Source: Candidatus Omnitrophota bacterium
GTDB lineage: Bacteria; Omnitrophota; Gorgyraeia; Duberdicusellales; 4484-171
Direction: 5' to 3'
DNA: 64,000 bases
NCBI GenBank assembly: GCA_021735045.1
Contig: JAIPHU010000001.1
Location: 4,529-68,528, forward strand
The notes under the pieces were generated by a model, which was not told where the DNA came from, made no database searches, and saw only the letters and a list, made by a program, of their open reading frames with translations. Shown piece by piece: positions 15,216 through 39,565 of this stretch; within the stretch, counting starts at the first letter, position 1; each line of letters starts with the position of its first letter. The position numbers and the translations under genes are program-made.

Positions 15216-15346
15216 CAGCCCCAAACCAGCCATTGAACCAGAGTTTGCCTTCAATCAAAGAAAGGATGCAAACACGGTTCAAGGCTGGGATAAACCGTAC
15301 TTGTTCTGGTTCTGGGCAGATAGATAACAGATTAACACAGATAAAG
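15216..15346 (+). ncRNA. Structured intergenic element, family 2, copy A (ACAGCCCCAAACCAG core) upstream of lpxA: candidate cis-regulatory RNA
   Basis: Shares ordered blocks with copy B at 39411: ACAGCCCCAAACCAG, GGCTG, AACCGTA, TTCTGGTT, GGCAGAT, ACACAGATAAA. The internal hairpin differs in sequence but keeps its structure (TTGAACC...GGTTCAA). Confidence 0.4.
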
Positions 15347-15365
15347 GAGATAGAGAGCAAGCGAG

Positions 15366-16154
15366 ATGGCAAAGAAAATTGATCCAAAAGCAATAGTAGG
15401 CTCTAAGGCGAAGATAGCAGATAATGTCGAGGTAGGGCCTTATGCTATAATTTCCGATGATGCCCAAATAGGGAGCGGTACAAAAATTGAGCCTTTTGCT
15501 CAAGTCCTCGGGCAGACTAAAGTAGGTTCTAACTGCCATATCTTTTCTCAAGCTGTAGTAGGAAGCATCCCCCAAGACCTAAAGTATAAGGGGGAAAGAA
15601 GTTATTTGGTTGTAGGAGATAACAACCGAATCAGGGAGTTTGTTACTATTAATCCTGGTACAGAAAAAGATGCAAAGACGATAATTGGTAATAATAACTT
15701 AATTATGGCTTATTCTCATATTGCTCATGATTGTGTTATTGGTGATGAAAATGTTTTAGCTAACGGAGCTACTTTAGCTGGCTATGTAGACGTTGGCAAT
15801 AATGTGGTAGTAGGTGGCCTTGTAGCTATTCATCAGTTTTGTCAATTAGGAGATCATTCCATAGTTGGAGGATGTTCTAAGGTTGTTCAAGACGTTCCTC
15901 CCTATTCGATGTGTGATGGCCATCCAGCAATTGTCAGAGCCTTAAATTCAATTGGCTTAAAAAGAAAAAATTTTTCTTCTTCGGCAATAAAAGATTTAAA
16001 AAAAGCATTTAAAATACTTTTTTTTAGCGATCACTCTTTTGATCAAGCAAAAAAAATTACTGGTGAAACGATTGGTTCAGTTGAACAGGTCAAGTTTCTT
16101 CTTGGTTTTATCTCAAACTCTAAACGAGGTATAGGTAGAAGACAAGATAAATGA
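15366..16154 (+). CDS. lpxA: Acyl-ACP--UDP-N-acetylglucosamine O-acyltransferase
   Basis: 262 aa, left-handed beta-helix hexapeptide repeats with the LpxA C-terminal helical domain. Confidence 0.85.
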   Translation: MAKKIDPKAIVGSKAKIADNVEVGPYAIISDDAQIGSGTKIEPFAQVLGQTKVGSNCHIFSQAVVGSIPQDLKYKGERSYLVVGDNNRIREFVTINPGTEKDAKTIIGNNNLIMAYSHIAHDCVIGDENVLANGATLAGYVDVGNNVVVGGLVAIHQFCQLGDHSIVGGCSKVVQDVPPYSMCDGHPAIVRALNSIGLKRKNFSSSAIKDLKKAFKILFFSDHSFDQAKKITGETIGSVEQVKFLLGFISNSKRGIGRRQDK

Positions 16155-16197
16155 TTTTAATTTATTTAGTAATTTTGCTTATCGATAAGGTATTTAT

Positions 16198-17010
16198 ATG
16201 CAAATAGGTATTATTGCCGGAAACAAGAACCTCCCTTTACTTTTAGCTAAAAGACTTTCCGAGAGTAAAAAATTTAGGAAAATAGTAGGAGTTTGTTTCA
16301 AGGGGGAAACTTCTTCTAAATTTTGTAAATACGTCGATCAATGTTTGTGGGTAGAAGTTGGTAAATTAAAAGATTTAAGCGAAGCTATTAAAACTCAAAA
16401 GGTAAAAGATTGGGTGATGGTAGGCCAAATTAATCCTTTAAATATATTTAAAGAAAAAAAATGGGATGATGAATTAAAAAAAATAGTTAACGAGCAAACA
16501 AATTTTTGCCCTCACACTATTTTTCAATTAATAATCAGTTATCTAGAAGCTGAAGGAATAAATTTTCTAGATTCTACTTTTTACCTAGAAAATGATTTAG
16601 CAAAAAATGGTTTGATGAATGGTTTTAGTTTATCTGATTCAACTAGAGAAAATATTGAGTTTGGTTTAGATAAAATATCTAAATTTGTTGAAATGGATAT
16701 AGGGCAAACTTTAGTTGTAAAAAATAATGCAGTAGTTGCTGTAGAATCTTTAGAAGGGACCGATAACACGATAAAAAGAGGAGCTAAAATAGCTGGATTA
16801 GGTATAACTGTATTGAAGTTTGCTAAAGAAGCTCAAGATTTGCGTTTTGATGTTCCGGTTGTTGGTATAGCAACTTTAAAGTTGCTTAAAAAAGTTCGGG
16901 CTGCTTGCTTGGCCTTAGAAAAAGATAAAACCATAATTCTAGATAAAGAAAAGTTCCTGGATTTAAGTAAAAAATGGAAAATTTCCGTAATTGGCCTAAC
17001 CCGAAGATAG
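16198..17010 (+). CDS. lpxI: UDP-2,3-diacylglucosamine pyrophosphatase LpxI (DUF1009)
   Basis: MQIGIIAGNKNLPLLLAK N-terminus; DIGQTLVV..AVE.LEGTD and VPVVGIATLKLL motifs resemble Caulobacter-type LpxI. Sits directly after lpxA. Confidence 0.6.
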   Translation: MQIGIIAGNKNLPLLLAKRLSESKKFRKIVGVCFKGETSSKFCKYVDQCLWVEVGKLKDLSEAIKTQKVKDWVMVGQINPLNIFKEKKWDDELKKIVNEQTNFCPHTIFQLIISYLEAEGINFLDSTFYLENDLAKNGLMNGFSLSDSTRENIEFGLDKISKFVEMDIGQTLVVKNNAVVAVESLEGTDNTIKRGAKIAGLGITVLKFAKEAQDLRFDVPVVGIATLKLLKKVRAACLALEKDKTIILDKEKFLDLSKKWKISVIGLTRR

Positions 17011-18902
17011 CCTTTGTTACAAAAGTTGCAGTTGTATTAATTTTTATTTTTGTCCTGCCAGCAGTTGTTTTAGCAAAAGATAAATCTAGCCAAATAAATA
17101 GTTATCTTAATACTGCCACAATTTTTGAAAAATCTTTTCAATACGAAAAAGCTATAGGGGTAATTAAGAGCTGTGAGTACCAAAATAATTCTAATATTTT
17201 AAAATATTTAGCGAAGCTTTTTTGTTTAACGGGAAAAAGTAAAGAAGCTTATCAAAAATTAAACAGTTTGACTAATAAAAGCTGGGTTGACTATCTGTAT
17301 TTAGGCTTAATAAATGAAAAATTAGGCCAAGTTAATCAAGCTATTGATGCTTATAAAAAATCTTTGAAATTAGAAAAGAATAGTATTGGCCTTTTTAGGT
17401 TAGCCAAAATATATCGGGCGAGAAAAAAATATAATAAGGCAGCTAATTTTTTTAAAAAGTTAATAGATTACGATTCAAGTATAAGGGTGGCTTATTATTA
17501 TCTTGGTCAATGCTTAAGAAAGGTTGATCAAAATAGAGAAGCTTACGAGAGCCTAGCTAAAGCATTTAGTTTTTTTCCTGGCCGGATTAAGGTAAAAGAA
17601 GAACTTAAAGAAGTAAAGCGAAAATTAGGTAAGGATTTTTTTGAAAAAAGAAAAAAATTAAAAGCTGAAAAAAGGCAAAAAGTTAAACTGGTTTCTTACC
17701 AAAAGCAAGAGAATGTTCCTTATGTCCGGATAGGAGTTGCTGTTGACTTAGGTAAATTTTCTTTACTTTCGCCTTCTGATTTTAAAATAAAAAGCAAAGA
17801 TTTAGTTTATGAAGGCAAACCAGACATTTTTTATCAGTTTCAGTTAAAAGAAAACAAGATTGTTTTATCAAACCATAAAACCGGCCAAGTTTATGAAACC
17901 TTTTTCTTACCGGTTGAAATCATTTCTAGGCCAATCAATAGGAAAAGTTATCCTTTCTATATATTAGATGTAGTGTATGGAAGCGGAAATTTTTGGCATA
18001 AAAAAATTGATAGGGCTTATCGGGGTAGCTTTGAGGTTATTTTAAAAAATAATAAAATTAACTTAGTAAATATTGTCAGCATCGAGGAGTATCTTTATGG
18101 AGTGTTAGCTGCCGAGATTCCGGCTGGAGCCAACAAAGAGGCTCTTAAAGCACAAGCTGTTTTAGCCAGAAGTTTGGCTATTAGGAATAAAGCAAGGCAT
18201 ATTGGCCAAGGTTTTGATTTTTGCGCCGATAGTCATTGTCAAGTTTATCATGGTTTATCGGCTGAGACCGAATCTACTAAAGAAGCAGTAGATGAAACCC
18301 GGGGTAGAATTATTTCTTATGAAGGTAAAGTCCCGGAAATTTTTTACCACTCTAACTGTGGAGGGTGTTTGTCCCCCGATATTTTTGGCCAAAAACAATA
18401 TTTAGCAAAAGGACGAGATTCAGAAAATAAAAATATGCCGCAATCAATATACAAAAAACAACAATGGTTTTTAGAATATCCAAAAACTTTTTGTTTTAGA
18501 AAAAGTTCTAAATTTCGTTGGCAACGAATCTATGATCAAGAAGATTTTAGTATTGCTTTTGGGGCTAGAATAAAAGATTTAACCAATATTATTCCTAGAG
18601 AGCAGAAAGATTGTTGTCGTTATGCTAAAATGGATGTTGTCATTGGAGATGAGTTAATAAGTTTAGAAAGTGGTTTAGAAATTAGAAACTTTTTTGACCA
18701 TCTTCGCAGCAGTGCTTTTTCTTTGGAGTTAAGAAAAAGTGCAGGAGCTGAAACTGAGATGCTTATTTTTTGGGGTTCGGGGTTCGGCCATGGAACAGGC
18801 CTTTGCCAGGAAGGAGCTATTGGCATGGCCAAGGAAGGTTATAATTATAAGCAGATATTAAACCATTATTATCCGGAAGGCAAAATAGAGAAATATTATT
18901 AA
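16974..18902 (+). CDS. TPR-repeat protein with a C-terminal SpoIID/LytB-like domain (signal-anchored)
   Basis: N-terminal hydrophobic anchor, TPR-like repeats (NQAIDAYKKSLKL, AYYYLGQC), a KR-rich linker, and a C-terminal SpoIID/LytB fold (VLAAEIP..AQAVLARSLAI...CADSHCQVY). Confidence 0.55.
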   Translation: MENFRNWPNPKIAFVTKVAVVLIFIFVLPAVVLAKDKSSQINSYLNTATIFEKSFQYEKAIGVIKSCEYQNNSNILKYLAKLFCLTGKSKEAYQKLNSLTNKSWVDYLYLGLINEKLGQVNQAIDAYKKSLKLEKNSIGLFRLAKIYRARKKYNKAANFFKKLIDYDSSIRVAYYYLGQCLRKVDQNREAYESLAKAFSFFPGRIKVKEELKEVKRKLGKDFFEKRKKLKAEKRQKVKLVSYQKQENVPYVRIGVAVDLGKFSLLSPSDFKIKSKDLVYEGKPDIFYQFQLKENKIVLSNHKTGQVYETFFLPVEIISRPINRKSYPFYILDVVYGSGNFWHKKIDRAYRGSFEVILKNNKINLVNIVSIEEYLYGVLAAEIPAGANKEALKAQAVLARSLAIRNKARHIGQGFDFCADSHCQVYHGLSAETESTKEAVDETRGRIISYEGKVPEIFYHSNCGGCLSPDIFGQKQYLAKGRDSENKNMPQSIYKKQQWFLEYPKTFCFRKSSKFRWQRIYDQEDFSIAFGARIKDLTNIIPREQKDCCRYAKMDVVIGDELISLESGLEIRNFFDHLRSSAFSLELRKSAGAETEMLIFWGSGFGHGTGLCQEGAIGMAKEGYNYKQILNHYYPEGKIEKYY

Positions 18903-18921
18903 GGCTGGCTAGATTTAAAAT

Positions 18922-19389
18922 ATGTATTTTTTAAAGAAAAGTGTAAATATAGTTATAGATTCAGTTATCCATATAGTTATTAGTTTAGAGATTTTTCTGA
19001 TTGCTTATTTTAAAACAGGAAAAGTTTTTTATCTCTTACCGGCTGTATTAGGTGGGGTATTAATAGATATTGATCATGTCATTGATTATTTAATTCAGTT
19101 TAGAAAAGTAGATTTTAAGGGGCTATTGTTTTTTCCTTACAGAAAAAGGAAAAATATATATTTATTTTTTCATTCTTGGGAATTGGTTATTATTTTTTTT
19201 CTTTTTTCGTTTTTTTATGATTCTTTGTTTTGGCAAATATTTAGTTATTCTTGGGCCCTACATTTGTTGGTTGATAATATTGATGGTGCAAAAGATAAAA
19301 GGTTTTTTCATTATTTTTTTATTTATCGGTTAGCTAAGAAGTTTAAAACAGAAAAGTTAAAAGGATTTATTTTTGACAAGCGGTTATAG
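18922..19389 (+). CDS. Small polytopic membrane protein, possibly a DUF457/YdjM-like metal-dependent hydrolase
   Basis: 155 aa with 4 predicted TM helices and conserved His/Asp in IDIDHVIDY and HSWE. Weak assignment. Confidence 0.3.
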   Translation: MYFLKKSVNIVIDSVIHIVISLEIFLIAYFKTGKVFYLLPAVLGGVLIDIDHVIDYLIQFRKVDFKGLLFFPYRKRKNIYLFFHSWELVIIFFLFSFFYDSLFWQIFSYSWALHLLVDNIDGAKDKRFFHYFFIYRLAKKFKTEKLKGFIFDKRL

Positions 19390-20778
19390 GTTGTTTTTTA
19401 TAAGGTAGGTTTCTATATCTTTTGTAGTTTGAAAATTACCCAGATCTCTCCAAATTGCTTTATTTTCCATGCATAAATAAATCGGTGTTTTTTGATCAAA
19501 CCTCTTGATCTCTCTGGTTATCTTCTTATAAATTATTTTTCGTAAAAACTCAGGATATCTTAGTTTTTTATCCTTGCCAATTAACAGTTCCCCATAAAAA
19601 ATATTGCTTTTGGGGAAGCGTTGTTCAACTATTGGTTTAAGTTGCCGGTTAGAGCGAAGCGTGCCTAAACTTATCCAGGCAAAAGGTGGTTTAAGTTTAG
19701 CATAGAGTAACTGGATTAACTTTTTATAATCTTTTTCCCAATTTTTATAATAGATAATAGGGTCAAAATGAAAAGCTAACTTAAAACCTATATCTTGTAT
19801 TTTTTTTGCAGCTGTTAATCTTTCTTGGAGTGAAGCGGCGCCTTTTTCTTCAAATTTAATAATTTTTTCAGGATTAAGAGACCAGGAGATAATTATATTT
19901 GAAACTGGTTTTTGGGTTAGTATATTTTCAATTTTGTTACTTTTTGTTTTTAACTCAAATAAGACATTTTTATTTTTAAAATATGAGATAAGTTCAGTAG
20001 AATAGTTGGTTATATGATCTAGAGCTAGGGAGTCGCAAAACTCACCGGTGCCAATTCGGATTGGCCTATCTATTTTCTTTCTAAACTTATCAAATTGTCG
20101 AAAAAAATCTGTTAAATTTGCGGGTAAAATTATACCAGCAGAATTTGTGTATTGTTGTAGGTAACAATAGGAACAATCAAAAGGACAGCCAAAACCAAGA
20201 TTAAATATCCAATAACCGCAGCCAAGATGGCCTTTTGTACAAGGGCAGGGTTTTAGAAAGTCCCGATTTTCTTCTACAATAAAAACAAAAGGTTTTTTTA
20301 GTTCAGATAGCCTAAATTTATTATTTTTAATGTAGTCTTTTAAAGAAGATATTTGTTTTATTTTTAAGTTGGGAAAATGTTTTTGAAAGTTGTCGATTAA
20401 ATAAGTTCCTTTTGTTTTTTTCTCAAAAAATAAAGTAGTTGGCCTAAAGGTATCTTTAACAGTCCAGTTGTCTTTGAGAGGGGCCTGCAGTTTATTTAAA
20501 AATATTTTTTTTCGATCAATATTTTTGTATGTAGAAGTTAAAGGAAAGCGAAGCTTAACTAAACAATCTTTAAGAGCAAAGAACTTATTTCTTCCTGTTT
20601 GCCTATCAACTTTTGAATTTGTTTTTAAGTAGTTGATAATTTTAGGTGTTGATATATTTTGTCTGCGGCTGATTTCAAAAATAAGTCTTTTTATATCTTG
20701 GTATTGATTTTGGTTTAACTGAAACGCAAATGTTTTTTCCAATTCTTCTTTTAAAGTTTTATCTATATAATTTTTCAT
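19384..20778 (-). CDS. Radical SAM protein of the spore-photoproduct-lyase (SplB) family with an N-terminal extension of about 120 aa
   Basis: The radical-SAM motif GCPFDCSYCYLQ (CX3CX2C) followed by YCYLQ resembles the SPL-family CxxxCxYCYL motif. The later ASLQERLTAAKK..GF region is SPL-like. Assignment made from memory of SplB sequences. Confidence 0.5.
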   Translation of the reverse strand: MKNYIDKTLKEELEKTFAFQLNQNQYQDIKRLIFEISRRQNISTPKIINYLKTNSKVDRQTGRNKFFALKDCLVKLRFPLTSTYKNIDRKKIFLNKLQAPLKDNWTVKDTFRPTTLFFEKKTKGTYLIDNFQKHFPNLKIKQISSLKDYIKNNKFRLSELKKPFVFIVEENRDFLKPCPCTKGHLGCGYWIFNLGFGCPFDCSYCYLQQYTNSAGIILPANLTDFFRQFDKFRKKIDRPIRIGTGEFCDSLALDHITNYSTELISYFKNKNVLFELKTKSNKIENILTQKPVSNIIISWSLNPEKIIKFEEKGAASLQERLTAAKKIQDIGFKLAFHFDPIIYYKNWEKDYKKLIQLLYAKLKPPFAWISLGTLRSNRQLKPIVEQRFPKSNIFYGELLIGKDKKLRYPEFLRKIIYKKITREIKRFDQKTPIYLCMENKAIWRDLGNFQTTKDIETYLIKNNL

Positions 20779-21604
20779 ATTTGTTTAAAAGGTTTCTATA
20801 TTTTTTGGCTTCTTTAGTTTTTTTTCTTAAAGTTGCGCCTTTTATATAGATTAAGCATTTGTTTTGTAGTTGCTGGTAGGCTGTTTGATATTGCTCTTTT
20901 TTTAAATTTTTAGTCTGAAGAATTTTATCTAAAGCATAAATTCTGAACTTATCTAGAGCTGGATATTTTTTAGATTGTTGATCTTTGTGCCCGCCTTCTT
21001 TTATGGTTAGGGTTTCTGGGATAAGGCATACCGGATATTGTGAGGTTGCCCTTAACCAAAAATCATAATCTTCGCAAGCTAATAAGTTTTGATCAAAATT
21101 ACCGATTTGGCTAAAAATATCTTTTTTGATTACAGCAGTAGAGATACTAACAGAACATAATCTAGCTGCATTTTCAAATATAAATCCGTCTGGTTTTTTA
21201 TGTTCTTTTTTTTGACTAAGGAGTTTACCATTTCTATACCAGATTTCTTTACTATGGAAGATTTTATAATCGGGATTTTTTTTTATGTATTTATAACTAA
21301 TTATTAATTTATCGGTACGGAATCTGTCATCTGAATCTAGAAAACAGATAAACTTTCCTTTAGCTTTGGTTATACCTAAGTTTCTTGCTGATGCGGGGCC
21401 TTTGTTTTCTTGGTAGTAGTAATTTAGTTTGGGATTTTTATAATTTTTGATAAGTTTTTTTGTAGAGTCATTTGAGCCGTCATCGACAATGATTAGTTCA
21501 TAGTGAGGGTATGTCTGTTTTAGCACAGAGTCTACTGCTATTTTTAGAAACTGTCTGCGGTTATAGGTAGGAATGATTATGCTAAAAAAAGGTTTTTTAT
21601 CCAT
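20759..21604 (-). CDS. Family 2 glycosyltransferase
   Basis: FSIIIPTYNRRQFLKIAVDSVLKQTYPHYELIIVDDGS and DSDD match the GT-A fold DxD. Start taken at MDKKPFFSII; the ORF track extends it to 21628. Confidence 0.7.
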   Translation of the reverse strand: MDKKPFFSIIIPTYNRRQFLKIAVDSVLKQTYPHYELIIVDDGSNDSTKKLIKNYKNPKLNYYYQENKGPASARNLGITKAKGKFICFLDSDDRFRTDKLIISYKYIKKNPDYKIFHSKEIWYRNGKLLSQKKEHKKPDGFIFENAARLCSVSISTAVIKKDIFSQIGNFDQNLLACEDYDFWLRATSQYPVCLIPETLTIKEGGHKDQQSKKYPALDKFRIYALDKILQTKNLKKEQYQTAYQQLQNKCLIYIKGATLRKKTKEAKKYRNLLNKYEKLYR

Positions 21605-21786
21605 AATAAATTTTGTTAAATAAAACACTAATTGCCTAGACGGTTTGGTTCTTATCTGTATAATTATAACATAATCGTCTTATATGCAAAGATCCGAAGG
21701 ACGATGGATGAAGGACGAAAGGACGAAACGTCCATCTTCCTTTCGTCTGTCGTCTATCAAAACATTGGCATAGCGAGTTAATTATT

Positions 21787-22905: not shown

Positions 22906-23044
22906 TAAGGCATTTTGCAGACGTCCTACTTTTAGCCATTTAGGTACACCCTATAAATCTGCAAAATCTGCAAGAAAAAAGAGATTAAAAGTTACTACCT
23001 TTGAGGTGGGAACTAAAGATTATGAAAATTTTTTCTTTTTTTTC

Positions 23045-23072
23045 TTGACAAAAGTCTCTTTTATAGTATTAT
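23045..23072 (+). promoter_or_regulatory. Candidate promoter for tRNA-Thr/rpmG/tRNA-Trp/secE-nusG: TTGACA-16nt-TATTAT
   Basis: Consensus -35 TTGACA and a -10-like TATTAT about 80 nt upstream of tRNA-Thr, inside a spurious 78-aa ORF. Confidence 0.3.
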
Positions 23073-23151
23073 CGAAAGGTCAGTTCTTGCAATATAGATC
23101 TGTTTTTTAAAATTATTTATCTGCTTTTGGCGAAAAACATCCCGCTATCGC

Positions 23152-23223
23152 GCCTGGATAGCTCAGGGGTAGAGCGCGTCCTTGGTAAGGACGAGGCCAT
23201 GGGTTCAACTCCCATTCCAGGCT
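23152..23223 (+). tRNA. tRNA-Thr (anticodon GGT)
   Basis: Cloverleaf folded by hand: acceptor GCCTGGA/TCCAGGC, D-arm GCTC-AGGGGTA-GAGC, anticodon arm CGTCC-TTGGTAA-GGACG, T-arm ATGGG-TTCAACT-CCCAT. Confidence 0.85.
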
Positions 23224-23339
23224 TAGAAGAAGGCGGGATGGGAACTTGAGAAGTTAAAAGTAGGCCTAAAAATTAGAAAGAACCAAAAAAATGACGGGGG
23301 GATTTTAGACCCTAAATTTTTGTATTTTCATAACTTATT

Positions 23340-23828: not shown

Positions 23829-23858
23829 AAAAACTAGTTATTGGATGTTTAATCTATT

Positions 23859-24053: not shown

Positions 24054-24060
24054 TTTTAAA

Positions 24061-24588: not shown

Positions 24589-24594
24589 ATGAAA

Positions 24595-24704: not shown

Positions 24705-24721
24705 AAAAAAGAGGATGTAAC

Positions 24722-27134: not shown

Positions 27135-27140
27135 TTTTTT

Positions 27141-27212
27141 GTTCAATGTTCGACGTGCGACGTTCAACGTTATTTTTATAAAAAATATTAACGTAGAACA
27201 TGGAACATTGAA
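27141..27212 (+). promoter_or_regulatory. Long bipartite hairpin between rplL and rpoB: candidate attenuator or RNase III processing site
   Basis: GTTCAATGTTC pairs perfectly with GAACATTGAAC (11 bp), and inner GTTCAACGTTA pairs with TAACGTAGAAC (10/11), around an AT palindromic loop. There is no U-tract after it. Confidence 0.35.
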
Positions 27213-27244
27213 CGTAGAACAAAAACCAATAAAAGAGGAGATCT

Positions 27245-30664: not shown

Positions 30665-33600
30665 TTGAGGAAGTAGGTTTTTTTGACCGAATCAGCATAA
30701 AATTAGCTTCAAATGAAAGTATGAGGAGTTGGTCATCAGGCGAAATAAAAAAAGCCGAGACTCTTAACTACCGAACTCTTAAACCGGAGAAAGATGGGCT
30801 TTTTTGTGAGAGAATTTTTGGCCCAGCTAAAGATTGGGAGTGTCATTGTGGGAAACTAAAAGGAATAAAATTTAAAGGAACAAAATGTAACCGTTGTGGC
30901 GTTGAAGTCCTTCATTCATCTGTACGCCGCCAGCGAATGGGGCATATAGATTTAGCCACGCCAGTTACTCATATCTGGTTTTTTAAGGTTTTGCCTTCTC
31001 GATTAGGAGCAATTTTAGGTTTAAGTATAAAAGAATTAGAAAAAATTATTTATTATGAAGAATATGTGGTAGTCGATCCCGGATCTTCAAAGTTAAAAGA
31101 AAAACAGCTTATTAGCCAAGAAGAATATTTTGATACTCAAACTGAGTATGGCCCAGAAGTAAAGATAATGATTGGAGCTGAAGCGATTCGGGAGCTTCTC
31201 AAAAGATTAGATTTAGCTAAAGTTAGCAGAAATATCAGAAAGAAAATTGAAAAGAGTAAAAAAGCAGCCAATAAAAGGCTCTTAAAAAGACTTAAAATTG
31301 TAGAAGATTTGCGTCGTTCAGGGAATAAACCAGAATGGATGGTATTAAATATTTTACCAGTTATCCCGCCTGACCTGCGGCCATTAGTTCCACTCGAGGG
31401 AGGCAGATTTGCTTCATCTGATTTAAATGATCTTTACAGACGAGTTATCAATAGAAACAATCGCCTTAAGAAGTTAATTTCTTTGGGGGCACCGGAGATA
31501 ATTATTCGTAATGAAAAAAGAATGCTTCAAGAAGCAGTTGATGCTGTTTTAGAAAATGGGCGTCATGGCAGGCCGGTCATGGGCCCGCAAAATCGTCCGC
31601 TTAAAAGTCTTTCTGATATGCTTAAAGGTAAACAAGGACGTTTTAGGCAAAACTTGTTAGGAAAGCGTGTAGATTATTCGGGAAGAAGTGTAATTGTAGT
31701 AGGGCCAGAGTTGAAACTTCATCAATGTGGTTTACCTAAAGAGATGGCTCTTGAATTAGTTGAACCGTTTATTATTAAAAAATTACGGGAAAAAGGGTTT
31801 GTCCATACAATCAGAGGTGCGCGCCGGATGGTGGAGAGAGCCAGAATTGAAGTCTGGGATATTTTAGAAGATGTAATTAAAGGGCACCCTGTTTTATTAA
31901 ATCGGGCTCCTACATTACATCGTTTAGGAATTCAGGCATTTTACCCTACTTTAGTAGAAGGTAAGGCAATTAAACTACATCCTTTAGTTTGTGCACCTTT
32001 TAATGCTGATTTCGATGGGGATCAGATGGCAGTTCATCTTCCGCTTTCTTTGGAGGCGCAAGCTGAAGCAAAGTTGTTAATGCTGTCGGTGCATAATATT
32101 TTTTCTCCTTCAGATTCAAGGCCGGTTATTGTGCCTTCTCAAGATATGGTTATCGGATGCAGATATCTTACTACAGAAGCAGAAGGGCAAAAAGGTCAAG
32201 GAATAACTTTTGGCAACTCTGATGAAGTAGTAACTGCCTATCAAGATGATGAAGTGAAACTGCCTACCAAAATTAAATTTTTTCTTAAAAGAGACGGCGA
32301 AAGTAAGATTATTGAAACAACTGTAGGGAGAGTAATATTTAACAGAGTTTTGCCTAAAGGGTTTAGGTTTGTTAATGAACTTTTAGATAAGAAAAAAATA
32401 TCTAAAATCATCGATGATTGCTATGATCAGTTTGGCCACAATGCAGTTATTGAGCTTCTGGATAAGATTAAGGATTTGGGTTTTGAATATGCTACTTTAG
32501 GTGGAATAAGTATATCTAACAATGACTTAGAGGTTCCCAAGCAGAAATACGAGTCTATAGAAGAAGCTAACAAAGAGTTGGCTAAGGTTGATAGCCAATA
32601 TAAAAGAGGTATTATTACCCAACGTGAGCGCCATAATAAAATTATTGATATTTGGACTAGGACTACAGATAAAGTAACTGATTTAGTTTTTAACAATATG
32701 AGTAAGTTTAATCCAGTTTTTATGATGGCTGATTCTGGAGCTCGCGGATCTAAATTACAGGTTAGGCAGCTTGCCGGAATGAGGGGGCTTATGGCTAAAC
32801 CATCCGGTGAGATTATTGAAATTCCGATAACTTCAAACTTTAAGGAGGGGTTATCAGCTTTAGAGTATTTTATTTCTACTCACGGTGCACGAAAAGGTTT
32901 AGCTGATACTGCGTTAAAAACAGCAGATGCTGGTTATCTTACTCGACGTTTAGTTGATGTTGCTCAAGAAGTAATAATTGTTGAAGATGATTGTAAAACA
33001 GTAAACGGAATTACAGTTTCTGAAATTGTTGAAGGTGAAGAAGTTGTTGTAACTTTAAAAGAAAGGATTGTCGGAAGGGTGGCTGTTGACAATATAGTAG
33101 ATATTGTAAGTGACGAGGTTATCGTGAAAGCCGGCCAGGAGATATCAGAAGAAAAAGCAGATAAAATAGATAAATTAGGCTTGGAAAAAATAAGGATAAG
33201 AAGTGTGCTTACTTGTGAATCAGAAAGAGGTGTATGCGCTAGGTGTTATGGAAGAAATTTAGCTACTCGGAAGTTAGTTGAAGTTGGTGAAGCAGTTGGA
33301 GTAATTGCAGCTCAATCAATAGGGGAACCGGGTACCCAGCTTACCATGAGGACTTTTCATATCGGCGGTACTGCCTCACGTGTGGCTGAGCGTGCTTTTG
33401 TCAAAGCTAGAAATAAAGGTGTGGTTAAGTTCCATAATTTAAAAGTAGTTAAAAAGGGGAATCAATTTGTTGTTTTAAATAGGAATGGAATGATTAGTGT
33501 AAATGACCCTAAGGGGATTGAACTACAAAGGAATCCAGTTCCCCACGGTGCTTTTATAATGGTCCCTGAAGGTAATGAAGTTGAAAAGGGTAAGACTTTT

Positions 33601-34635
33601 GTAAAATGGGATCCATTTTCTTCTCCGATTCTTTCTGAGGTAACCGGAAAAATAAAATATGAAGATATTATTGATAAGATGACTATTCAAGAAGAGATGA
33701 ATGTTGCAACGGGGAGAAAAGAAAGAGTAGTTGTAGAGTTTAAAGGTGATTACCATCCTCAGATATTAATAGTCTCTAAAGATTCTGAGGAAGTATTAGG
33801 AATATATCCTTTGCCAACAGGGGCTCATATTATGCTTGAAGAGGGGGCCTTGGTTGAAGCGGGCGATGTTATTGCAAAAACTCCTCGTTTAGTTGAAAAA
33901 ACTAGAGACATTACCGGGGGTCTTCCTAGAGTAGCTGAACTTTTTGAAGCTAGACGCCCTAAGAATCCGGCAATTATTAGTGAGATTGATGGTTTTGTAG
34001 AATTTACTGAGAAAAAAGGCCAGCGTAAAGTTATTGTTCGCAGCCCAACCGGTATGAGCCGAGAATATAAAATTCCTACTGGAACTCATCCTATTGTTTA
34101 TCGTGGTGATAAAGTAACAGCTGGGCAACAGCTTACTGAAGGTCCGGTAGTCTTACAGGATATTTTAAGTGTTTGCGGTGATAAAGTATTACAGAGCTAT
34201 CTAGTAAATGAAGTACAAGAAATCTATAGATTACAAGGTGTAAGAATCAATGATAAACATATTGAAGTAATTATTCGAGAGATGCTGAAAAAAGTAAAGA
34301 TAGTTGACCCGGGTGATAGCGATTATCTTCCTGATGAAGGTATTGATAAGTGGGATTTTCGTAAAGCTAATGAAGCAATTATTAAAAAGGGAGGCCGGCC
34401 GGCGACAGCTCAGCCGATGTTACTGGGCATAACTAAGGCATCTTTAAGTACCAAAAGTTTTATCTCGGCAGCTAGTTTTCAGGAAACAACTAGGATTTTA
34501 GCCGATGCATCATCAGCAGGAAAAGTTGATTCGTTAAAAGGTTTAAAAGAAAATGTAATAGTAGGTCATTTAATTCCAGCAGGAACAGGATTAAAGAGGT
34601 ACCGGGAGGTTGAAGTAGAGAAATGCCAACAATAA
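30661..34635 (+). CDS. rpoC: DNA-directed RNA polymerase subunit beta'
   Basis: Zn-finger [16 protein letters not shown], catalytic [12 protein letters not shown], bridge helix and trigger loop. ATGA overlap with the rpoB stop; the ORF-track start at 30628 is probably too early. Confidence 0.95.
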
Positions 34636-35000
34636 ATCAATTAATTAAAAAACCAAGAGCTAAAACAAGAAAGAAAACTAAATCTCCAGCCTTAGGCAAA
34701 GCACCACAGAGGCGTGGGGTTTGCATCCAGGTAAGAACAGCGACACCGAAGAAACCAAATTCAGCTTTAAGAAAAATAGCTAGAGTTCGTCTCACTAATC
34801 GTCATGAAGTTACTGCTTATATTCCCGGTGAAGGGCATAATTTGCAAGAACATTCTATGGTTTTAGTACGGGGGGGGAGGGTCAAGGATCTTCCTGGAGT
34901 GAGATATCATATTGTTAGAGGGGCCCTAGATTGTCAAGGCGTCCAAGATCGTAAGCGTTCTCGTTCTAAATATGGCGCAAAAAGACCAAAGGCAAAATAA
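34623..35000 (+). CDS. rpsL: 30S ribosomal protein S12
   Basis: [14 protein letters not shown]...[10 protein letters not shown] is the S12 signature. Overlaps the rpoC 3' end by 13 nt. Confidence 0.9.
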
Positions 35001-35005
35001 AAGTA

Positions 35006-35097
35006 ATCAACGAATGTATGAATCAATTACGAATTTACAAATTTTTATGAACCCATATTCGTATATTCGTAGGGATTAGTAAAATCGTAGATGATAG
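35006..35097 (+). repeat. TACGAAT-rich palindromic intergenic element, copy 3 (between rpsL and rpsG)
   Basis: ATCAACGAATGTATGAATCAATTACGAATTTACAAAT ... ATTCGTATATTCGTAGGGATTAGTAAAATCGTAGATGAT. About 90% identical to copy 4 in the core. Confidence 0.55.
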
Positions 35098-35118
35098 TTA
35101 AATTAACGAGGTATAATT

Positions 35119-35586
35119 ATGAGAAGACATAGAGCACCGAAAAGAGAAAGAAAACCAGACCCAAAATACGGTAATCCTATATTAGGTCATTTTATTAATA
35201 TTATTATGGTTGATGGAAAAAAGAGTAAAGCACAAAGGATTGTCTATAATGCTTTTGATGCAGTATCAGAGCATCTGAAAGAAGATCCGATAAAAGCTTT
35301 ATTTACAGCCCTAGACAATACTCGGCCGCGGATGGCTGTGAAACCGCGTAGGGTTGGCGGGGCAACTTATCAAGTTCCCATGGAAGTACCTAAGGAAAAA
35401 GGTATTTTTATTGCTTTACGTTGGATCAAAGATTTCGCAAAAAAGAAAAAGAATCAACCGATGGAAAAGAAAATTGCTGATGAAATAATTGCTGCTTATA
35501 ATAATGAGGGGCCGGTGGTCAAGAAAAAACAAGATACTCATAGAATGGCAGAGTCAAACAAGGCTTTTGCGCATTTTAAATATTAA
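35119..35586 (+). CDS. rpsG: 30S ribosomal protein S7
   Basis: 155 aa S7 (KFSTALD-like ..DNTRPRMAVKPRRVGGATYQVP). Confidence 0.9.
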   Translation: MRRHRAPKRERKPDPKYGNPILGHFINIIMVDGKKSKAQRIVYNAFDAVSEHLKEDPIKALFTALDNTRPRMAVKPRRVGGATYQVPMEVPKEKGIFIALRWIKDFAKKKKNQPMEKKIADEIIAAYNNEGPVVKKKQDTHRMAESNKAFAHFKY

Positions 35587-35666
35587 GAAGATAGAAGTTA
35601 GAGGTTAGAAATTAGATAGAAGATAATTTTATTTTTGATATAAAAGTGAAGAATGCAAGTTTAGTT

Positions 35667-37733
35667 ATGGATAAAGAAAAGAGTTTAGCTAAGATTCGCA
35701 ATATTGGCTTTATAGCCCATATTGATGCAGGTAAAACTACGGTTACAGAAAGAATACTTTTTTATGCAGGTAGAACCTATAAGATTGGGGAAGTTCACGA
35801 AGGTACTGCTGTAACTGATTGGATGCATCAAGAAAAAGAAAGGGGTATTACTATAACTAGTGCCGCTACTTCTTGTGATTGGAAAAATCACCAGATTAAT
35901 ATTATTGATACTCCTGGCCATATTGATTTTACTGTTGAAGTCGAACGTTCTTTAAAAGTTTTAGATGGTGCAGTTGTTATTTTCTGCGGTGTTTCAGGAG
36001 TAGAGCCACAGTCAGAAACAGTTTGGCGTCAGGCAGAAAAATATGATGTTCCGCGAATTTGTTTTGTGAATAAGATGGATCGGGAAGGTGCTGATTTTTT
36101 TGCTGTAGTCTCTGAAATGAAGGAAAAATTTCAGATACCTATAGTTGCCTTGGAGTTACCGATTTATGATAACGATGAATTTAGAGGGGTAGTTGATTTA
36201 ATTGAAGAAAAAGCTTACTACTATGAAGGTAAATTAGGAGAAAAGATAAAAGAAGAAGAAATTCCAGAGAAATTAAAAGAGATTGTTGCTAATAAAAAAG
36301 AATTAATAATTGAAAAGATTGCAGAATTAGATGATGCCTTTATGAGTAAAGTTATTGAAGGAGAAAAAATTAAAAAAGAAGAGATAGTTTCTGCGATTAG
36401 AAAGTATGTTATTGGGAATAAGTTAGTTGCTGTATTTTGTGGTTCAGCTCTAAAAAATAAAGGAGTCCAACAACTCTTAGGTGCTGTTTGCAGCTATTTA
36501 CCGTCACCAACTGAGGTAAAACCGGTTTTGGCTAAAGTTGTTTCAAGTGATCAGGAAAAAGAAATCAAGGCTAGCCCGGGTGGGCCATTTTGTGCGTTAT
36601 GTTTTAAGATAGCAACAGATCCTTTTGTTGGTAAGTTGTTTTATGTGCGTATATATTCTGGTAGCATTGATTCAGCATCAACTATTTATAACGCAACTCA
36701 ACAAAAAAAAGAAAAAATAAATAAAATTGTAAAGATGCACGCCAACAAACAAGAAATTATAAAAAACGCTAAAGCTGGTGATATTGTTTGCCTGGCTGGG
36801 CTAAAGAATACAATGACCGGAGACACTCTTACAGAAAAAAAAGATCCGGTTATGATCGAAAATATAAAATTCCCTGAGCCAGTAGTATCTTTGGCTATTG
36901 AGCCTAAGACTAAAGCTGATCAGGAGAAGCTATTTGGAGCTCTGATGAAGTTAGCTGACGAAGACCCTTCTTTTAAAGTTACCTACAACCGGGAAACTGG
37001 ACAAAATGTTATATCGGGTATGGGGCAGCTTCATCTGGCAATTATGGTTGATAGACTATTAAGAGAATTTAATGTTAAGGCAAAAGTAGGTAAACCGCAG
37101 GTTGCCTATAAAGAAACTGTAAGCAAAAAGGTTCAGGCGACTGGTAAGTTTATTCAGCAAAGAGGTGGACAGGGCCAATATGGGCATGTTGAAATTGTTA
37201 TGACTCCATCTGGAGAAGGTACCGGGATTAGTTTTGAAAATAAAATTAAGTCAGGGGTAATTCCTAAAGAGTTTATATCTTCGGTAAAAGAGGGTGTGGT
37301 TGAAGCTTCTGAAAGTGGAATCTTAGGTGGGTATCCAGTAGTTGATCTAAAGGTTACTTTAATTGATGGTTCTTATCATGAGGTAGATTCTTCTGAATTG
37401 AGTTTTAAAATTGCCGGAGAGATAGCTTTTAAAGAAGGCCTGCGAAAAGCTAGATCGATACTACTTGAGCCAATTATGGATTTAGAAATTATTACACCGG
37501 TAGAGTATCTTTCTCAAGTAATTGGTGACCTTAATTCAAGAAGAGCAAAAATACATTTAGTTAAAGAAAGAAAAAATTTACGGACAGTTAGTGTTGAGAT
37601 TCCTTTAAGTGAATCTTTTAACTATGCAGATTCATTGAGGAACTTGACACAAGGCAGAGCCTCATATACAATAGAGCCTTCATATTATCAGAAGGTTCCT
37701 GAGGAATTGCTTTCAAAGATTTTAGGCATATAA
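35667..37733 (+). CDS. fusA: Elongation factor G
   Basis: [17 protein letters not shown]1 motif, DTPGHIDF, and domains II-V. Start chosen at [15 protein letters not shown]; the ORF track offers a GTG at 35646. Confidence 0.9.
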
Positions 37734-37750
37734 ATAGAATAGGCAATTGA

Positions 37751-37840
37751 TAAGCAGGAACAATCAACGAATGTACGAATCAATTACGAATTTACAAATA
37801 ATAAAATTCGTATATTCGTAGAGATTAGTAAATTCGATGA
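37751..37840 (+). repeat. TACGAAT-rich palindromic intergenic element, copy 4 (between fusA and tuf), flanked by 10-bp direct repeats GGCAATTGAT / GGCAATTAAT
   Basis: Inverted termini ATCAACGAAT / ATTCGATGAT. The core is nearly identical to copy 3. The flanking 9/10 direct repeat at 37741-50 and 37841-50 looks like a target-site duplication. Confidence 0.55.
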
Positions 37841-37880
37841 TGGCAATTAATAAAATGATTTTTATAAAAGGAGGTGCTTT

Positions 37881-39086
37881 ATGGGAAAAGAGAAGTTTGT
37901 AAGATCAAAGCCCCATCTTAATATTGGGACTATTGGTCACGTAGACCACGGTAAGACCACCCTTACTGCAGCCATTACACAAGTTCTGGCGTTAAAAGGT
38001 GGGGGCCAAGCTTTGAAGTTTGAAGATATTGACAAGGCTCCTGAAGAGAAAGAACGTGGAGTAACTATTAATATTGCTCACGTTGAGTACGAAACAGAAA
38101 AAAGGCATTATGCACATATTGACTGTCCGGGTCACGCTGATTATATTAAAAATATGATTACCGGCGCTGCTCAAATGGATGGGGCAATACTTGTTGTTGC
38201 TGCAACAGATGGGCCTATGCCACAAACCAGAGAACACTTACTTCTGGCACGTCAGGTTAATGTTCCTGCGATTGTAGTGTTTGTTAACAAGGTTGACCAG
38301 ATGGATGATCCTGAGCTGGTTGAGTTAGTTGAAGAAGAAGTAAGAGACTTACTTACTAAGTATGAGTTTCCGGGTAAAGATATACCAATTGTAAAAGGTT
38401 CTGCGTTAAAAGCTTTAGAAGATGCTACTGCAGGAAATCCTGACAGTGAAAACTGCAAGCCAATAGTAGAATTAATTCAAGCTTGTGATGATTATTTTCC
38501 GGAACCAAAACGTGATACCGACAAGCCTTTTCTTATGGCTATCGAAGATATATTTTCAATCTCAGGCCGCGGTACAGTTGCAACTGGAAGAGTTGAAAGA
38601 GGAATTGTTAAAACTGGTGAAGAGATTGAGTTAGTTGGGATTAAAGAAGAAACTAAAAAAACTGTAGTTACTGGAATTGAGATGTTTAGAAAAACTTTAG
38701 ATGAAGCACAAGCTGGAGATAATGCTGGTTTACTTTTACGGGGGGTAGAAAAGGAACAGGCAGAAAGAGGCATGGTTATTGCTAAGCCTGGAACCATTAC
38801 ACCGCATAAAAAGTTTAAGGCAAAAGTTTATGCTTTAAAGAAAGAAGAAGGTGGAAGACATACTCCATTTTTCTCAGGTTATAGACCACAATTTTATTTT
38901 AGAACTACAGATGTAACTGGTACTTGTAAGTTACCTGAAGGTGTTGAAATGGTTATGCCCGGTGATAATGTTGAAGTAGAAGTAACCTTGCTTCAACCGG
39001 TTGCTTGTGAAAAAGAGTTAAGGTTTGCTATCCGTGAAGGTGGAAGAACTGTAGGAGCTGGTTTAGTTACAGAAATAATCGAGTAA
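37881..39086 (+). CDS. tuf: Elongation factor Tu
   Basis: [27 protein letters not shown]. 401 aa. Confidence 0.95.
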
Positions 39087-39088
39087 GG

Positions 39089-39406
39089 ATGAAGTCACCA
39101 CTTAAAATTAGAATTAAACTGAAAGCTTTTGATCATAGGCTGCTTGATAATTCTGCTAAGGAGATAACAGAAGTAGCTATCCGTACTGGTGCTAAAATTA
39201 ACGGACCTATACCTATTCCTACTCGGAAAAAGGTTTATACGGTAAACAGAGCTACTAATGTTAACAAAAAATCACGAGAGCAGTTTATGATTGCGGTACA
39301 TAAACGGATAATAGACCTAGACAGCCCTACGGCAAAGACAATAGATGCATTAAGAAGGTTGAACTTACCAGCCGGAGTAAATGCAGAGATAAAGCAGGAA
39401 GTGTAA
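39089..39406 (+). CDS. rpsJ: 30S ribosomal protein S10
   Basis: 105 aa; [20 protein letters not shown] is the S10 signature. Confidence 0.9.
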
Positions 39407-39410
39407 TAAC

Positions 39411-39565
39411 ACAGCCCCAAACCAGAGTCGCCTTTGGCGACACGATTTAGGGCTGCCGTGAACCGTATTTATTCTGGTTTATGGCAGATGCACACAGATA
39501 AAATTACCGATAAACACAGATAAAATATCTGTGTGAATCTACTATAGATCTGTGTTTATCTGCGT
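39411..39565 (+). ncRNA. Structured intergenic element, family 2, copy B, between rpsJ and rplC, plus a 3' array of CACAGATAAA motifs in both orientations
   Basis: Identical 15-mer ACAGCCCCAAACCAG and ordered GGCTG / AACCGTA / TTCTGGTT / GGCAGAT / ACACAGATAAA blocks as at 15216. Internal hairpin GTCGCC-TTT-GGCGAC. Downstream palindrome ACACAGAT-AAAAT-ATCTGTGT. Confidence 0.4.

Follow-up and report, generated by a model that had tools for sequence, protein, structure and literature searches.

Insertion sequences of the IS200/IS605 family have no terminal inverted repeats and produce no target duplication; they carry a hairpin at each end, and insertion takes place 3' of a tetra- or pentanucleotide specific to the element (PMC7290912, PMC5027513). 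They insert into the lagging-strand template (PMC5027513), and their ends-only derivatives, the PATEs, are mobilised in trans by a Y1 HUH TnpA (PMC7290912, PMC5027513). REP units are palindromes of 20-40 bp which are tagged with GTAG or CGTC at one end, the two tags defining two superfamilies (PMC3733652). In the 64,000-nt stretch of DNA analysed here (the window), two copies of one structured element are found, at 15219-15319 (copy A) and at 39415-39487 (copy B). We consider it likely, with a probability of roughly 60%, that they represent a new mobile-element family in Omnitrophota, miniature and non-autonomous, of the PATE/REP kind and probably moved by an HUH (Y1) enzyme.

The original prediction had taken two look-alike intergenic stretches as copies of a single structured element. 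They have the exact 15-mer ACAGCCCCAAACCAG in common, which occurs twice in the window, as well as further collinear blocks (GGCTG-N5-AACCGTA-N4-TTCTGGTT-N3-GGCAGAT). Such similarity might arise by chance or as a by-product of low-complexity spacer words: a lone 15-mer pair in 64 kb is close to chance level (about 2 pairs by our estimate), and both sites lie in ACAGATA-word spacers, which are alike anyway. The collinear pattern, with its 20 specified bases, is not near chance level: it yielded only about 1-4 chance matches in 596 Gb of genomes. Against a chance origin, the covariance model of the family matches copy A with 72.8 bits (E about 1e-14) and copy B with 83.1 bits (E about 1e-17), the E-values of six copies range from 1e-14 to 1e-24, the element is found in at least six independent assemblies, and comparison with relatives reveals clean insertion gaps. 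The scores of the window copies and of a copy in L019, together with the clean gap, rule out chance for all practical purposes, and the model scores confirm the two stretches as one element. The model search returned no further match in the window. Among the blocks listed as shared, the 15-mer and the collinear blocks hold, while ACACAGATAAA and the AT of GGCAGAT belong to the host spacer and are present in relatives devoid of the element.

Rfam 15, which includes ribozymes, riboswitches, r-protein leaders and IS605-associated RNAs, yielded no family match; in the window, only tRNAs pass gathering. The best scores around both copies have E-values of 0.5 or worse and come from unrelated miRNA or lncRNA models, as do those at the other loci. 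None of the Rfam 15 ribozyme classes matches the copies even at E = 10, in agreement with the earlier statement that no familiar ribozyme consensus is matched. Insertion sequences in plasmid and phage collections show no sequence similarity to the element.

Copy A (101 nt, 15219..15319, plus strand as for all features below) is located between lpxC/fabZ (stop at 15211) and lpxA (ATG at 15366). Directly to its left, the host spacer provides an ACAG target motif (15215..15218); relatives without the element read ...GCACAG|ATAGACACAG... at this position. The CAG of this motif is also able to pair with the internal CUG of copy A. According to sequence and alignment, the copy begins with an extra 5' half-module, CCCCAAACCAG (15219..15229), which is the same as the 5' end of copy B. 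This half-module terminates in CAG, directly 5' of a second element-like start (CCATTGAACCAGAG), and may be a nested insertion or a recombinant, as judged from the sequence; copy A looks chimeric or degenerate. Its hairpin I (15226..15288; CCAGCC-A-TTGAACC / GGTTCAA-GGCTGG, from MFE folds and pair counts) holds an AGA/AC internal loop and a long variable apical stem (TTTGC...GCAAA). Hairpin II (15285..15319) has the invariant AACC/GGTT helix and the invariant loop GTACTTGTTCT (15297-15307), and its outer stem is broken by 5 mismatches. The adjacent ACAGATA-word spacer (15320..15349), which includes the ACACAGATAAA block and the Shine-Dalgarno sequence of lpxA, is outside the element and is kept in relatives without it.

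Copy B (73 nt, 39415..39487) is located between rpsJ (stop at 39406) and rplC (ATG at 39585), and an ACAG target motif of the host spacer (39411..39414) is again found directly to its left. Hairpin I (39412..39455) pairs CAGCCC..AAACC with GATTT.GGGCTG, has the AGA/AC internal loop and the apical stem TCGCC-TTT-GGCGA, and has its 5'-most CAG supplied by host sequence. Hairpin II (39453..39487) has a 12-bp stem (CTGCCGTGAACC / GGTTTATGGCAG) and the conserved loop GTATTTATTCT (39465-39475), and shows compensatory changes relative to L019, L005, L006, L012, L016, and L010. The older host spacer which follows (39488..39584) is the target region and lies outside the element; it is about 90% identical in L017 and L019, both of which are without element there. 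It contains an ACAGATA-word hairpin (stem at about 39484-39563; -33.9 kcal/mol, z = -6.6). The 178-nt gap between rpsJ and rplC, which had been considered unusual, is therefore only partly due to insertion (73 nt); the other 105 nt represent this spacer hairpin, which is shared with relatives.

Each element consists of two adjacent hairpins, with a core of 73 nt (101 nt in copy A). The consensus of hairpin I is CAGCCC-n2-3-AACC-[AGA]-variable stem-loop-[AC]-GGUU-n-GGGCUG and that of hairpin II is CUG-n5-AACC-[GUAYUURUUCU]-GGUU-n5'-CAG. The copies fold better than shuffled sequences, both as RNA (z = -4.1 and -4.9) and as single-stranded DNA on either strand (z = -3.6 to -4.4); the single-stranded DNA folds are significant, with z = -3.6 to -6.2. 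Pairing is retained in 93.5% of cells, compared to 83% in shuffles and 48% or less with slid partners. Double changes occur at 8 pairs, 5 of which are among the 9 pairs of hairpin II, and RNAalifold independently returns the same two hairpins. The hairpins are under selection. The 8 copies bear out the compensatory changes in hairpins of variable sequence, and with further homologs, covarying stems and the shuffle control all at hand, the proposal of a structured, evolutionarily constrained element is well supported. The stem mismatches (7 G.T, 5 A.C) show no clear strand asymmetry, so that either strand may be the one that folds.

The original prediction had also pointed to a complementarity between AACCAG and CTGGTT, and to a possible pseudoknot. 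The complementarity is real (8/8 between AACCAGAG and UUCUGGUU) but invariant, so that covariation gives no sign of the pseudoknot, and the nested two-hairpin fold accounts for the observed covariation.

Eight copies are known from six or more genomes or metagenomes, two of them being incomplete or divergent. The complete ones are copies A and B and those in L019, L006, L012, and L016. ACAG flanks all six on the left and all six have CAG as their 3' end, the CAG at both junctions always having the same orientation relative to the element (6/6); the first base of the right flank is A in 7/7 copies. The copy in L010 is an exception, with junctions lacking CAG. Neighbours of the copies are lpxA, rplC, fusA, parA (with the copy upstream), rplQ, a 362-aa ORF/tsaD, and a tRNA 3' end. 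L019 carries a near-identical copy of the same subfamily, with the same apical stem (TCGCCTTTGGCGA; 81.9 bits), in the rpsG-fusA spacer, which is without element in the window and in L022. Copies in L006, L012, and L016 form a subfamily that occupies three different loci and has termini (5' CCC..., 3' ...CCC) without inverted repeats. In L010, a hairpin-I-type and a hairpin-II-type module are 135 nt apart, as expected for separable left-end and right-end modules. Copy number looks low, with 2 copies in about 80 kb of contig and none in several relatives. Preferred insertion sites are spacers rich in CAGA/ACAGATA words and gene tails of these genomes.

Three independent pairs of filled and empty sites with near-identical flanks were obtained. 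The rpsJ-rplC site is filled in the window and empty in L017, L019, and L020, which read TAA(C/T)ACAG|ATGCACACAG without interruption; the alignment shows a single clean 73-nt gap. L022 also has no element upstream of rplC. The lpxC/fabZ-lpxA site is filled in the window and empty in L025, L026, L027, and L028-L033. At the 3' end of rplQ, L016 carries a copy inside the gene, and its 90%-identical relative L038 is empty; removal of the element from the L016 sequence restores the ...E(N/D)RKQK... tail of homologs. The element truncates rplQ here. In the empty relatives, LpxA is 78-87% and L3 67-72% identical to the window proteins, and the spacers are the same, including the ACAGATA words. All three empty sites read ACAG|A, and the window insertions are precise at ACAG|AT. 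The patchy presence and the exact ACAG|A junctions indicate an insertion element, and we are highly confident that the copies are mobile or inserted DNA rather than a locus-specific regulator.

A gene-specific leader of rplC or lpxA is rejected, because a leader should persist at the orthologous position, yet the element is absent upstream of rplC in L017, L019, L020, and L022 and upstream of lpxA in L025-L033. The roles that had been envisaged (cis-regulatory leader, ribozyme or sRNA) are thus not borne out: relatives have the same spacers without the element, and other copies are found in unrelated contexts. A broader version of this idea is that the primary role of the element is that of a structured RNA, which was spread to several operons and kept there for host benefit. 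It might be an sRNA, a small ribozyme that cleaves itself, or a portable module acting in cis on mRNA processing or stability. Invariant loops, covarying stems and RNA folds far better than those of shuffles fit this idea, as do the sense orientation of all copies, in or beside transcription units, the complementarity described above, which permits an alternative fold or pseudoknot, and the fact that intercistronic spacers of these genomes are already filled with long hairpins. However, the element is not required for expression of lpxA or rplC, being missing from the orthologous spacers of close relatives, and it truncates a gene in L016. No Rfam family matches, a terminator-like U-tract is not seen 3' of hairpin II in copies A and B (by eye), and copy A has a broken hairpin II. 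An RNA role would also leave the need for an insertion mechanism at the DNA level. We therefore regard a primary RNA function as unlikely; an RNA-level side effect or ribozyme activity may exist, but no observation made here calls for one.

The miniature mobile element which we favour inserts in a single orientation, directly 3' of ACAG and before A, and ends with CAG. In the pathway proposed here, an HUH (Y1) transposase acting in trans, of the IS200/IS605-TnpA or RAYT type, would cut out the top strand and insert it elsewhere as single-stranded DNA. For recognition of both hairpins, this enzyme would use the AACC/GGTT helix which they have in common as well as their conserved unpaired bases, and it would cut after CAG at each end; the internal CUG is able to pair with either CAG. 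The same contig (about 80 kb) and relatives (about 250 kb) yielded housekeeping genes but no transposase gene, so that the mechanism can only be inferred; we give the HUH/single-stranded DNA route even odds. The window copies are best seen as passengers in two operons, lpx and S10, whose transcription must run through them and whose mRNAs may incidentally gain stable hairpins.

The CAG on both sides may equally well be a 3-bp duplication of the target site or, on the right, the end of the element itself. If it is a duplication, the element could be a classical MITE, a deletion derivative of an insertion sequence with DDE transposase, having short terminal inverted repeats (CCCCAAACCAG / CTGGTTnnnGG) and a 3-bp duplication of CAG. 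The outermost 11-nt segments of copies A, B, and L019 (CAG excluded) show inverted similarity at 8-9/11 positions, CAG flanks every complete copy on both sides, and size and intergenic location are MITE-like. However, the inverted similarity can be explained by the resemblance of the 5' end to the 5' strand of hairpin II, and the copies in L006, L012, and L016, at three loci of which one has a verified empty site, end with CCC at both termini, which is not inverted. Moreover, CAG is non-palindromic, so that a symmetric cut-and-paste enzyme would yield both orientations, unlike observed; with a 50:50 outcome of a symmetric DDE reaction, the fixed orientation (6/6) has a chance of about 1/32-1/64. 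A MITE origin is thus improbable, though slightly less so than a primary RNA function.

The short constant core (CAG) at both junctions would also fit RNA-mediated retro-insertion, or a site-specific recombinase of the tyrosine, serine or DEDD (IS110-like) type for which CAG is the core. The copy in L010 abuts a tRNA 3' end, is flanked by the 9-nt direct repeat CGCCCCAAA and has a gene for a large serine recombinase 1.6 kb away. Yet two genes separate this recombinase from the copy, and it looks like an ordinary integrase. The many occupied sites differ beyond ACAG|A, unlike a single att site, no context of the reverse-transcriptase or bridge-RNA type was seen, and paired hairpins with a fixed-orientation 4-nt target are atypical of such systems. 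These routes are accordingly very unlikely. Similarly doubtful is that the element carries its own targeting information or catalysis, be it as a guide-directed ssDNA/RNA mobile element or as a portable RNA-processing module. Hairpin I can be closed by pairing between the internal CUG, which is invariant, and the host CAG directly left of the element; hairpin II can be closed by pairing of this CUG with the CAG at the end of the element. Such an arrangement resembles a built-in guide setting the sites of cleavage and joining. If true, the CUG guide, combined with the AGA/AC internal loop and the invariant loop of 9-11 nt, could be the hallmark of a novel type of mobile element, whereas an RNA-processing module would serve Omnitrophota beside the word-repeat spacer hairpins.

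The miniature mobile element may finally be compared with known systems. Like leaders of r-protein operons (e.g., the L4-binding S10 leader), copy B is an RNA-capable structured segment with covarying stems in the S10 operon, but the element is not kept at the orthologous site even in close relatives, occurs in unrelated operons and has no Rfam match. Integron attC sites have the inverse core RYYYAAC and the core GTTRRRY at their two ends. An attC site is rejected, the ends here being CCCCAAAC... and ...GTTTATG / GTTCGCG / GTTTACC, with no RRRY and no cassette context. In DDE-type bacterial MITEs (Correia/NEMIS, ERIC, RUP, and BOX among them), the terminal inverted repeats are clear, the target duplications are palindromic or of the TA type, and both orientations of insertion occur. 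These MITEs share with the element a length of about 100 nt, an intergenic or intercistronic location, co-transcription into stable RNA hairpins and a patchy distribution among relatives, but one subfamily here has no inverted termini and the flanking CAG is orientation-locked.

REP/REPIN sequences resemble the element as small extragenic palindromic hairpin units between operon genes. Their stems are retained through compensatory changes, and their presumed mover is an HUH Y1 enzyme (RAYT) encoded in single copy. They differ in that no GTAG/CTAC or CGTC/GACG is seen at any hairpin foot of the element (by eye), and in that a REPIN consists of two inverted copies of one REP, whereas two unlike hairpins, each self-complementary, are in tandem here. 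REPs reach tens to hundreds of copies per genome and flank a RAYT gene, compared to 2 copies in about 80 kb.

From PATEs, the element differs by its size (73 nt vs. about 270 nt; PMC7290912), by the near-likeness of its target ACAG and its 3' end CAG, which makes a 3-bp duplication a possible reading, and by the lack of TnpA, TnpB or a full-length parent among the about 80 kb of contig read. In the IS200/IS605 elements studied so far, the hairpins are subterminal and the cleavage sites some way from the hairpin feet, whereas here the hairpins reach the extreme ends. With respect to inverted repeats, termini without them (L006, L012, L016) are found beside the partly matching ones of copies A, B, and L019. 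The strand carrying all copies is gene-sense and rich in G (GC skew of +0.18 to +0.28 along the window). It has the sequence of the lagging-strand template, which would fit a PATE, but orientation relative to replication is fully confounded with that relative to transcription in the sampled copies. Like PATEs, the element inserts in an orientation-specific manner and with precise junctions 3' of a fixed tetranucleotide (ACAG in the six complete copies, with L010 differing), and it is a short non-coding sequence that has hairpins at both ends and apparently no need for terminal inverted repeats (PMC5027513, PMC7290912).

The window belongs to a MAG of a Candidatus Omnitrophica bacterium with 35% GC. 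Pairwise alignment of the two intergenic stretches upstream of lpxA and rplC re-found the blocks behind the original prediction of a structured functional RNA, in the order ACAGCCCCAAACCAG, a variable segment, GGCTG-N5-AACCGTA-N4-TTCTGGTT-N3-GGCAGAT and, later, ACACAGATAAA. The shared 15-mer occurs exactly twice in the window; taken alone, one such pair per 64 kb is close to chance expectation. Chance does not account for the collinear blocks, as judged from the scores obtained with a covariance model of the element (R1): 72.8 bits for copy A and 83.1 bits for copy B. The element proper spans 101 nt in copy A (15219-15319) and 73 nt in copy B (39415-39487). Compared with dinucleotide shuffles, both sites give better predicted folds, with z = -4.1 and -4.9 for RNA and z = -3.6 to -4.4 for either strand of single-stranded DNA. 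Rfam 15 gave no family match around both copies or on five loci, at the gathering threshold or at E = 10, in agreement with the original view that no known ribozyme consensus is present.

Further copies were sought with the 3' half of the element (GGCTGNNNNNAACCGTANNNNTTCTGGTT) as query; the pattern forces the hairpin-II loop, and conservation of this loop is thus partly by construction. The scan of one genome per species yielded two real copies, one cut at a contig end in an Omnitrophota MAG (L005) and one in an uncultured MAG (L006). Real copies from the JGI metagenomes are L010, L012, L013, and L016, with L013 having the same sequence as L006. Chance matches to the pattern in coding regions were discarded (L004, L007-L009, and L014, all from Psychrobacter; L011; L015). 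When R1 was searched with filters off against the window, the adjoining 16 kb of the contig, and about 250 kb of loci from relatives, no further site in the window rose above noise and the sole new copy was one between rpsG and fusA (L019). Copy density is low. The L019 copy reads AACTGTA and is outside the forced pattern, which shows that variants are missed by the pattern scans. Three patterns found nothing real in viral contigs, the plasmid and phage collections returned nothing but 27-nt chance matches in Klebsiella phages, and a literature search on Omnitrophota repeats gave nothing relevant. The contig with the truncated copy L005 also carries a c-di-GMP-I riboswitch (5435-5522; RF01051, 75 bits), which is unrelated to the element.

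Homologs with covarying stems were found, and eight copies (A, B, L005, L006, L010, L012, L016, L019) were aligned to R1 (alignment A4). Hairpin I has the consensus (A)CAGCCC-n2-3-AACC-AGA-[variable stem-loop]-AC-GGUUYA-GGGCUG and hairpin II the consensus CUG-n5-AACC-GUAYUURUUCU-GGUU-n5'-CAG. RNAalifold, run independently on A4, returned the same two hairpins. In this alignment, which has only eight sequences, is fitted to R1, and has a partly search-forced hairpin-II loop, 93.5% of the cells are paired, compared to 83% in column shuffles and at most 48% after shifting the partners by one to three columns. Both-sided changes occur in eight pairs, five of them in hairpin II, which has nine variable pairs (GGGGU/ACCCC, GAGGU/ACCUC, GCCGU/AUGGC, GCCGU/GCGGC, AUCCC/AGGAU); hairpin I has them in its apical stem, at two of three scored pairs. 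Pair counts and RNAalifold thus agree that helices are preserved while their sequence varies, as had been claimed from the two window copies. The complementarity of AACCAG and CTGGTT, on which a possible pseudoknot had been based, is also real and extends to 8/8 for AACCAGAG:UUCUGGUU. All 16 positions of this pairing are invariant in the eight copies and, because it never varies, covariation cannot test a pseudoknot or alternative pairing. The nested two-hairpin fold already explains all covariation seen.

Readings of the conserved loops as K-turn, T-loop, or sarcin-ricin motifs were rejected by eye, since the consensus positions do not fit. A small ORF was rejected because the variable region differs in length by 28 nt, not a whole number of codons. 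Stem mismatches, counted as a guide to the folding strand, show no clear strand asymmetry (7 G.T vs 5 A.C). An RNA-level function, as a processing site, stabiliser, or ribozyme, has the structure itself as its sole support and could coexist with mobility.

What we consider decisive is the comparison with relatives. The S10 region of the closest relatives was reached through L3 homologs (72% protein sequence identity to the window for L017; 67% for L019, L020, and L021) and the lpx region through LpxA homologs (87% for L025 and L026, 86% for L027, 78% for L028-L033). The rpsJ-rplC spacer is 105 nt in L017, L019, L020, and L021, reads TAA(C/T)ACAG|ATGCACACAGATAAAATTA...ATCTGTGTG..., and is about 90% identical to window positions 39488-39584. 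In a multiple alignment, a single clean 73-nt gap falls exactly at the ACAG/ATGC junction in 3/3 relatives aligned. The lpxC/fabZ-lpxA spacer of L025-L033 is 58-63 nt long and reads ...TGAAGCACAG|ATAGACACAGATAAATAACAGATTAACAC..., and in the window the element sits between ACAG and ATAG. The ACAGATA words, among them the last of the originally noticed shared blocks, are therefore host spacer. It also follows from these alignments that both window copies are lineage-specific insertions. L019 lacks the element between rpsJ and rplC but carries a copy of the same subfamily (subfamily 1, with copies A and B) in its rpsG-fusA spacer, where the apical stem TCGCCTTTGGCGA is identical and five of 73 nt differ; this spacer is free of the element in the window (35587-35645) and in L022.

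A third pair comes from subfamily 2 (L006, L012, L016). In L016 (194-282, minus strand), the element lies within the last rplQ codons and provides a stop codon (CCCGTAAACC), so that L17 ends ...KTENSP* and its lysine-rich tail (...EDRKQKAESKIQNA) is replaced; homologous L17 proteins end ...E(D)RKQK.... The related locus L038 (10400-10445), with 90% protein sequence identity to L016 and nearly identical DNA on both sides, reads GACAGAAAACAG|AAGGCAGAAAGC at the end of rplQ and is devoid of the element, and removal of the element from L016 restores ...TENRKQK... in frame. There are thus three verified filled/empty pairs (rpsJ-rplC, lpxC/fabZ-lpxA, and the rplQ 3' end). Dedicated control of lpxA or rplC, one of the roles originally envisaged, is excluded by the orthologous spacers of relatives, which are without the element. 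In our judgement, this comparison also takes away the attraction of the element as a candidate for a new regulatory RNA or ribozyme. We regard the element as a new family of very small, hairpin-bearing insertions in Omnitrophota, of the PATE/REP-like kind.

Some features of the adjacent genes were recorded. L3 (39585-40433) has 282 aa in the window and 214-310 aa in relatives, and is unusually long and variable, the typical bacterial length being about 210 aa; a K/E-rich stretch near 40010-40060 appears as a low-complexity repeat. A single ORF of 435 aa (13904-15211; Pfam LpxC and FabA domains) combines lpxC with fabZ, a fusion kept in all relatives examined.

The junctions of the insertions are constant. 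ACAG is the left flank and CAG the 3' end in 6/6 complete copies (A, B, L019, L006, L012, L016), and A is the first right-flank base in 7/7. The 3-nt CAG repeat at both sides leaves the boundaries ambiguous over as much as 3 nt: CAG may belong to the element and form its right end, or it may be a target duplication of 3 bp. A MITE moved by a DDE-type transposase is difficult to reconcile with this arrangement, since CAG is non-palindromic and yet always faces the same way with respect to the element. Subfamily 2 does not fit either: its termini are CCC at both ends and therefore not inverted repeats. Copies A, B, and L019 show 8-9/11 inverted similarity of their ends, a consequence of the likeness between the 5' end and the 5' strand of hairpin II. 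Wherever the context is known, the copy is in sense orientation to the neighbouring genes, and the window copies lie on the strand with a GC skew of +0.18 to +0.28; orientations relative to replication and to transcription are fully confounded in these copies.

The first 11 nt of copy A equal the start of copy B (CCCCAAACCAG), after which the sequence restarts with CCATTGAACCAGAG, similar to the subfamily of L006. Its hairpin II combines a subfamily-2-like 5' strand (CUGGGAUAAACC) with a subfamily-1-like 3' strand (GGUUCUGGGCAG), and five stem positions are mismatched as a result. This suggests that copy A is a chimera in which subfamily-1 ends enclose a subfamily-2-like core. It may have arisen, for example, when one element entered another behind an internal ...CCAG and the two then recombined in the identical 19-nt loop region; copy A is probably no longer a proper substrate for movement. 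Such a chimera fits the history of a mobile element, and a role as a selected lpxA regulator can hardly account for it.

L010 (10177-10407, minus strand; 48% GC) is an expanded, divergent relative of the element. Its hairpin-I-type module begins exactly at the 3' end of a tRNA gene (10402-10476) and is about 135 nt away from the hairpin-II-type module; this distance holds two more CCAGAG-hairpin modules, giving three in total. The two halves of the element are thus separable. L010 is bracketed by a 9-nt direct repeat (CGCCCCAAA) rather than CAG, and a gene for a 517-aa large serine recombinase (12005-13558), adjoining two more tRNAs, is found 1.6 kb away.

Most intercistronic spacers of the window genome and its relatives have one arm made of tandemly repeated words of 6-8 nt (TTCGTAn, GTTCnAC, GGACGAA, ACAGATA, GCGCTAA, GGTGAGT, AAGTCCT) and a second arm made of the complementary words. 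The resulting hairpins are 70-100 nt long, have z scores of -2 to -6.6, and are interrupted by a mismatch every 3-7 bp; none is followed by a U-tract. They were found in the window at 6875-6959, 7347-7446, 21690-21770, 27135-27235, 35001-35118, 37755-37850, 39484-39565, 45925-45970, and 61897-61990, and in relatives at L017 1347-1448, L019 8168-8262 and 9469-9577, and L022 9927-10000. Orthologous spacers keep the hairpin in relatives, while the word may differ by lineage. These hairpins are the preferred target of the element. The tuf-rpsJ gap is 2 nt in the window (39087-39088), and three relatives have a 102-109-nt spacer with a GTTCnAC-word hairpin (L017 1347-1448, L019 9469-9577, L022 9500-9608), indicating that spacer hairpins are gained or lost between close lineages.

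Omnitrophota is a phylum known almost entirely from MAGs, and this is apparently the first record of a 73-nt structured mobile element there. The main value lies in a clean description with three verified empty sites and a usable covariance model. A false lead is removed, as a riboswitch or ribozyme candidate in the S10 and lipid A operons is a selfish insertion, and R1 allows such insertions to be masked during annotation so that they are not misread as regulatory RNAs. The rplQ-truncating copy illustrates that the element can change coding sequence. With junctions that do not vary (ACAG|element...CAG|A), an anatomy of two hairpins, and verified empty sites, the family offers a compact test case for finding the responsible HUH-type enzyme and for hairpin-directed single-strand transposition in uncultured bacteria.

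Membership in the REP/RAYT system was rejected because the element lacks the GTAG/CGTC tag (PMC3733652) and the architecture of a REPIN. No transposase gene was found in about 80 kb of the contig and about 250 kb of relatives, and the top strand of the element would be moved by a Y1/HUH enzyme acting in trans. IS200/IS605-type elements and their ends-only PATE derivatives have no inverted repeats and no target duplication. Their insertion site lies 3' of a tetra- or pentanucleotide that is specific to the element, the Y1 HUH transposase binds a hairpin at either end, and they transpose as a single-stranded circle with the lagging-strand template favoured (PMC5027513, PMC7290912). Their hairpins are subterminal, whereas those of the element are terminal, which weakens the proposed mechanism, as do the ambiguous CAG, the low copy density, the mismatch count without strand asymmetry, and the confounding of replication with transcription. 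Features of the element that match the published hallmarks are its insertion at ACAG|A in fixed orientation, two hairpins under selection with a common AACC/GGTT helix and invariant unpaired bases, separable end modules, and, as subfamily 2 shows, no need for inverted termini.
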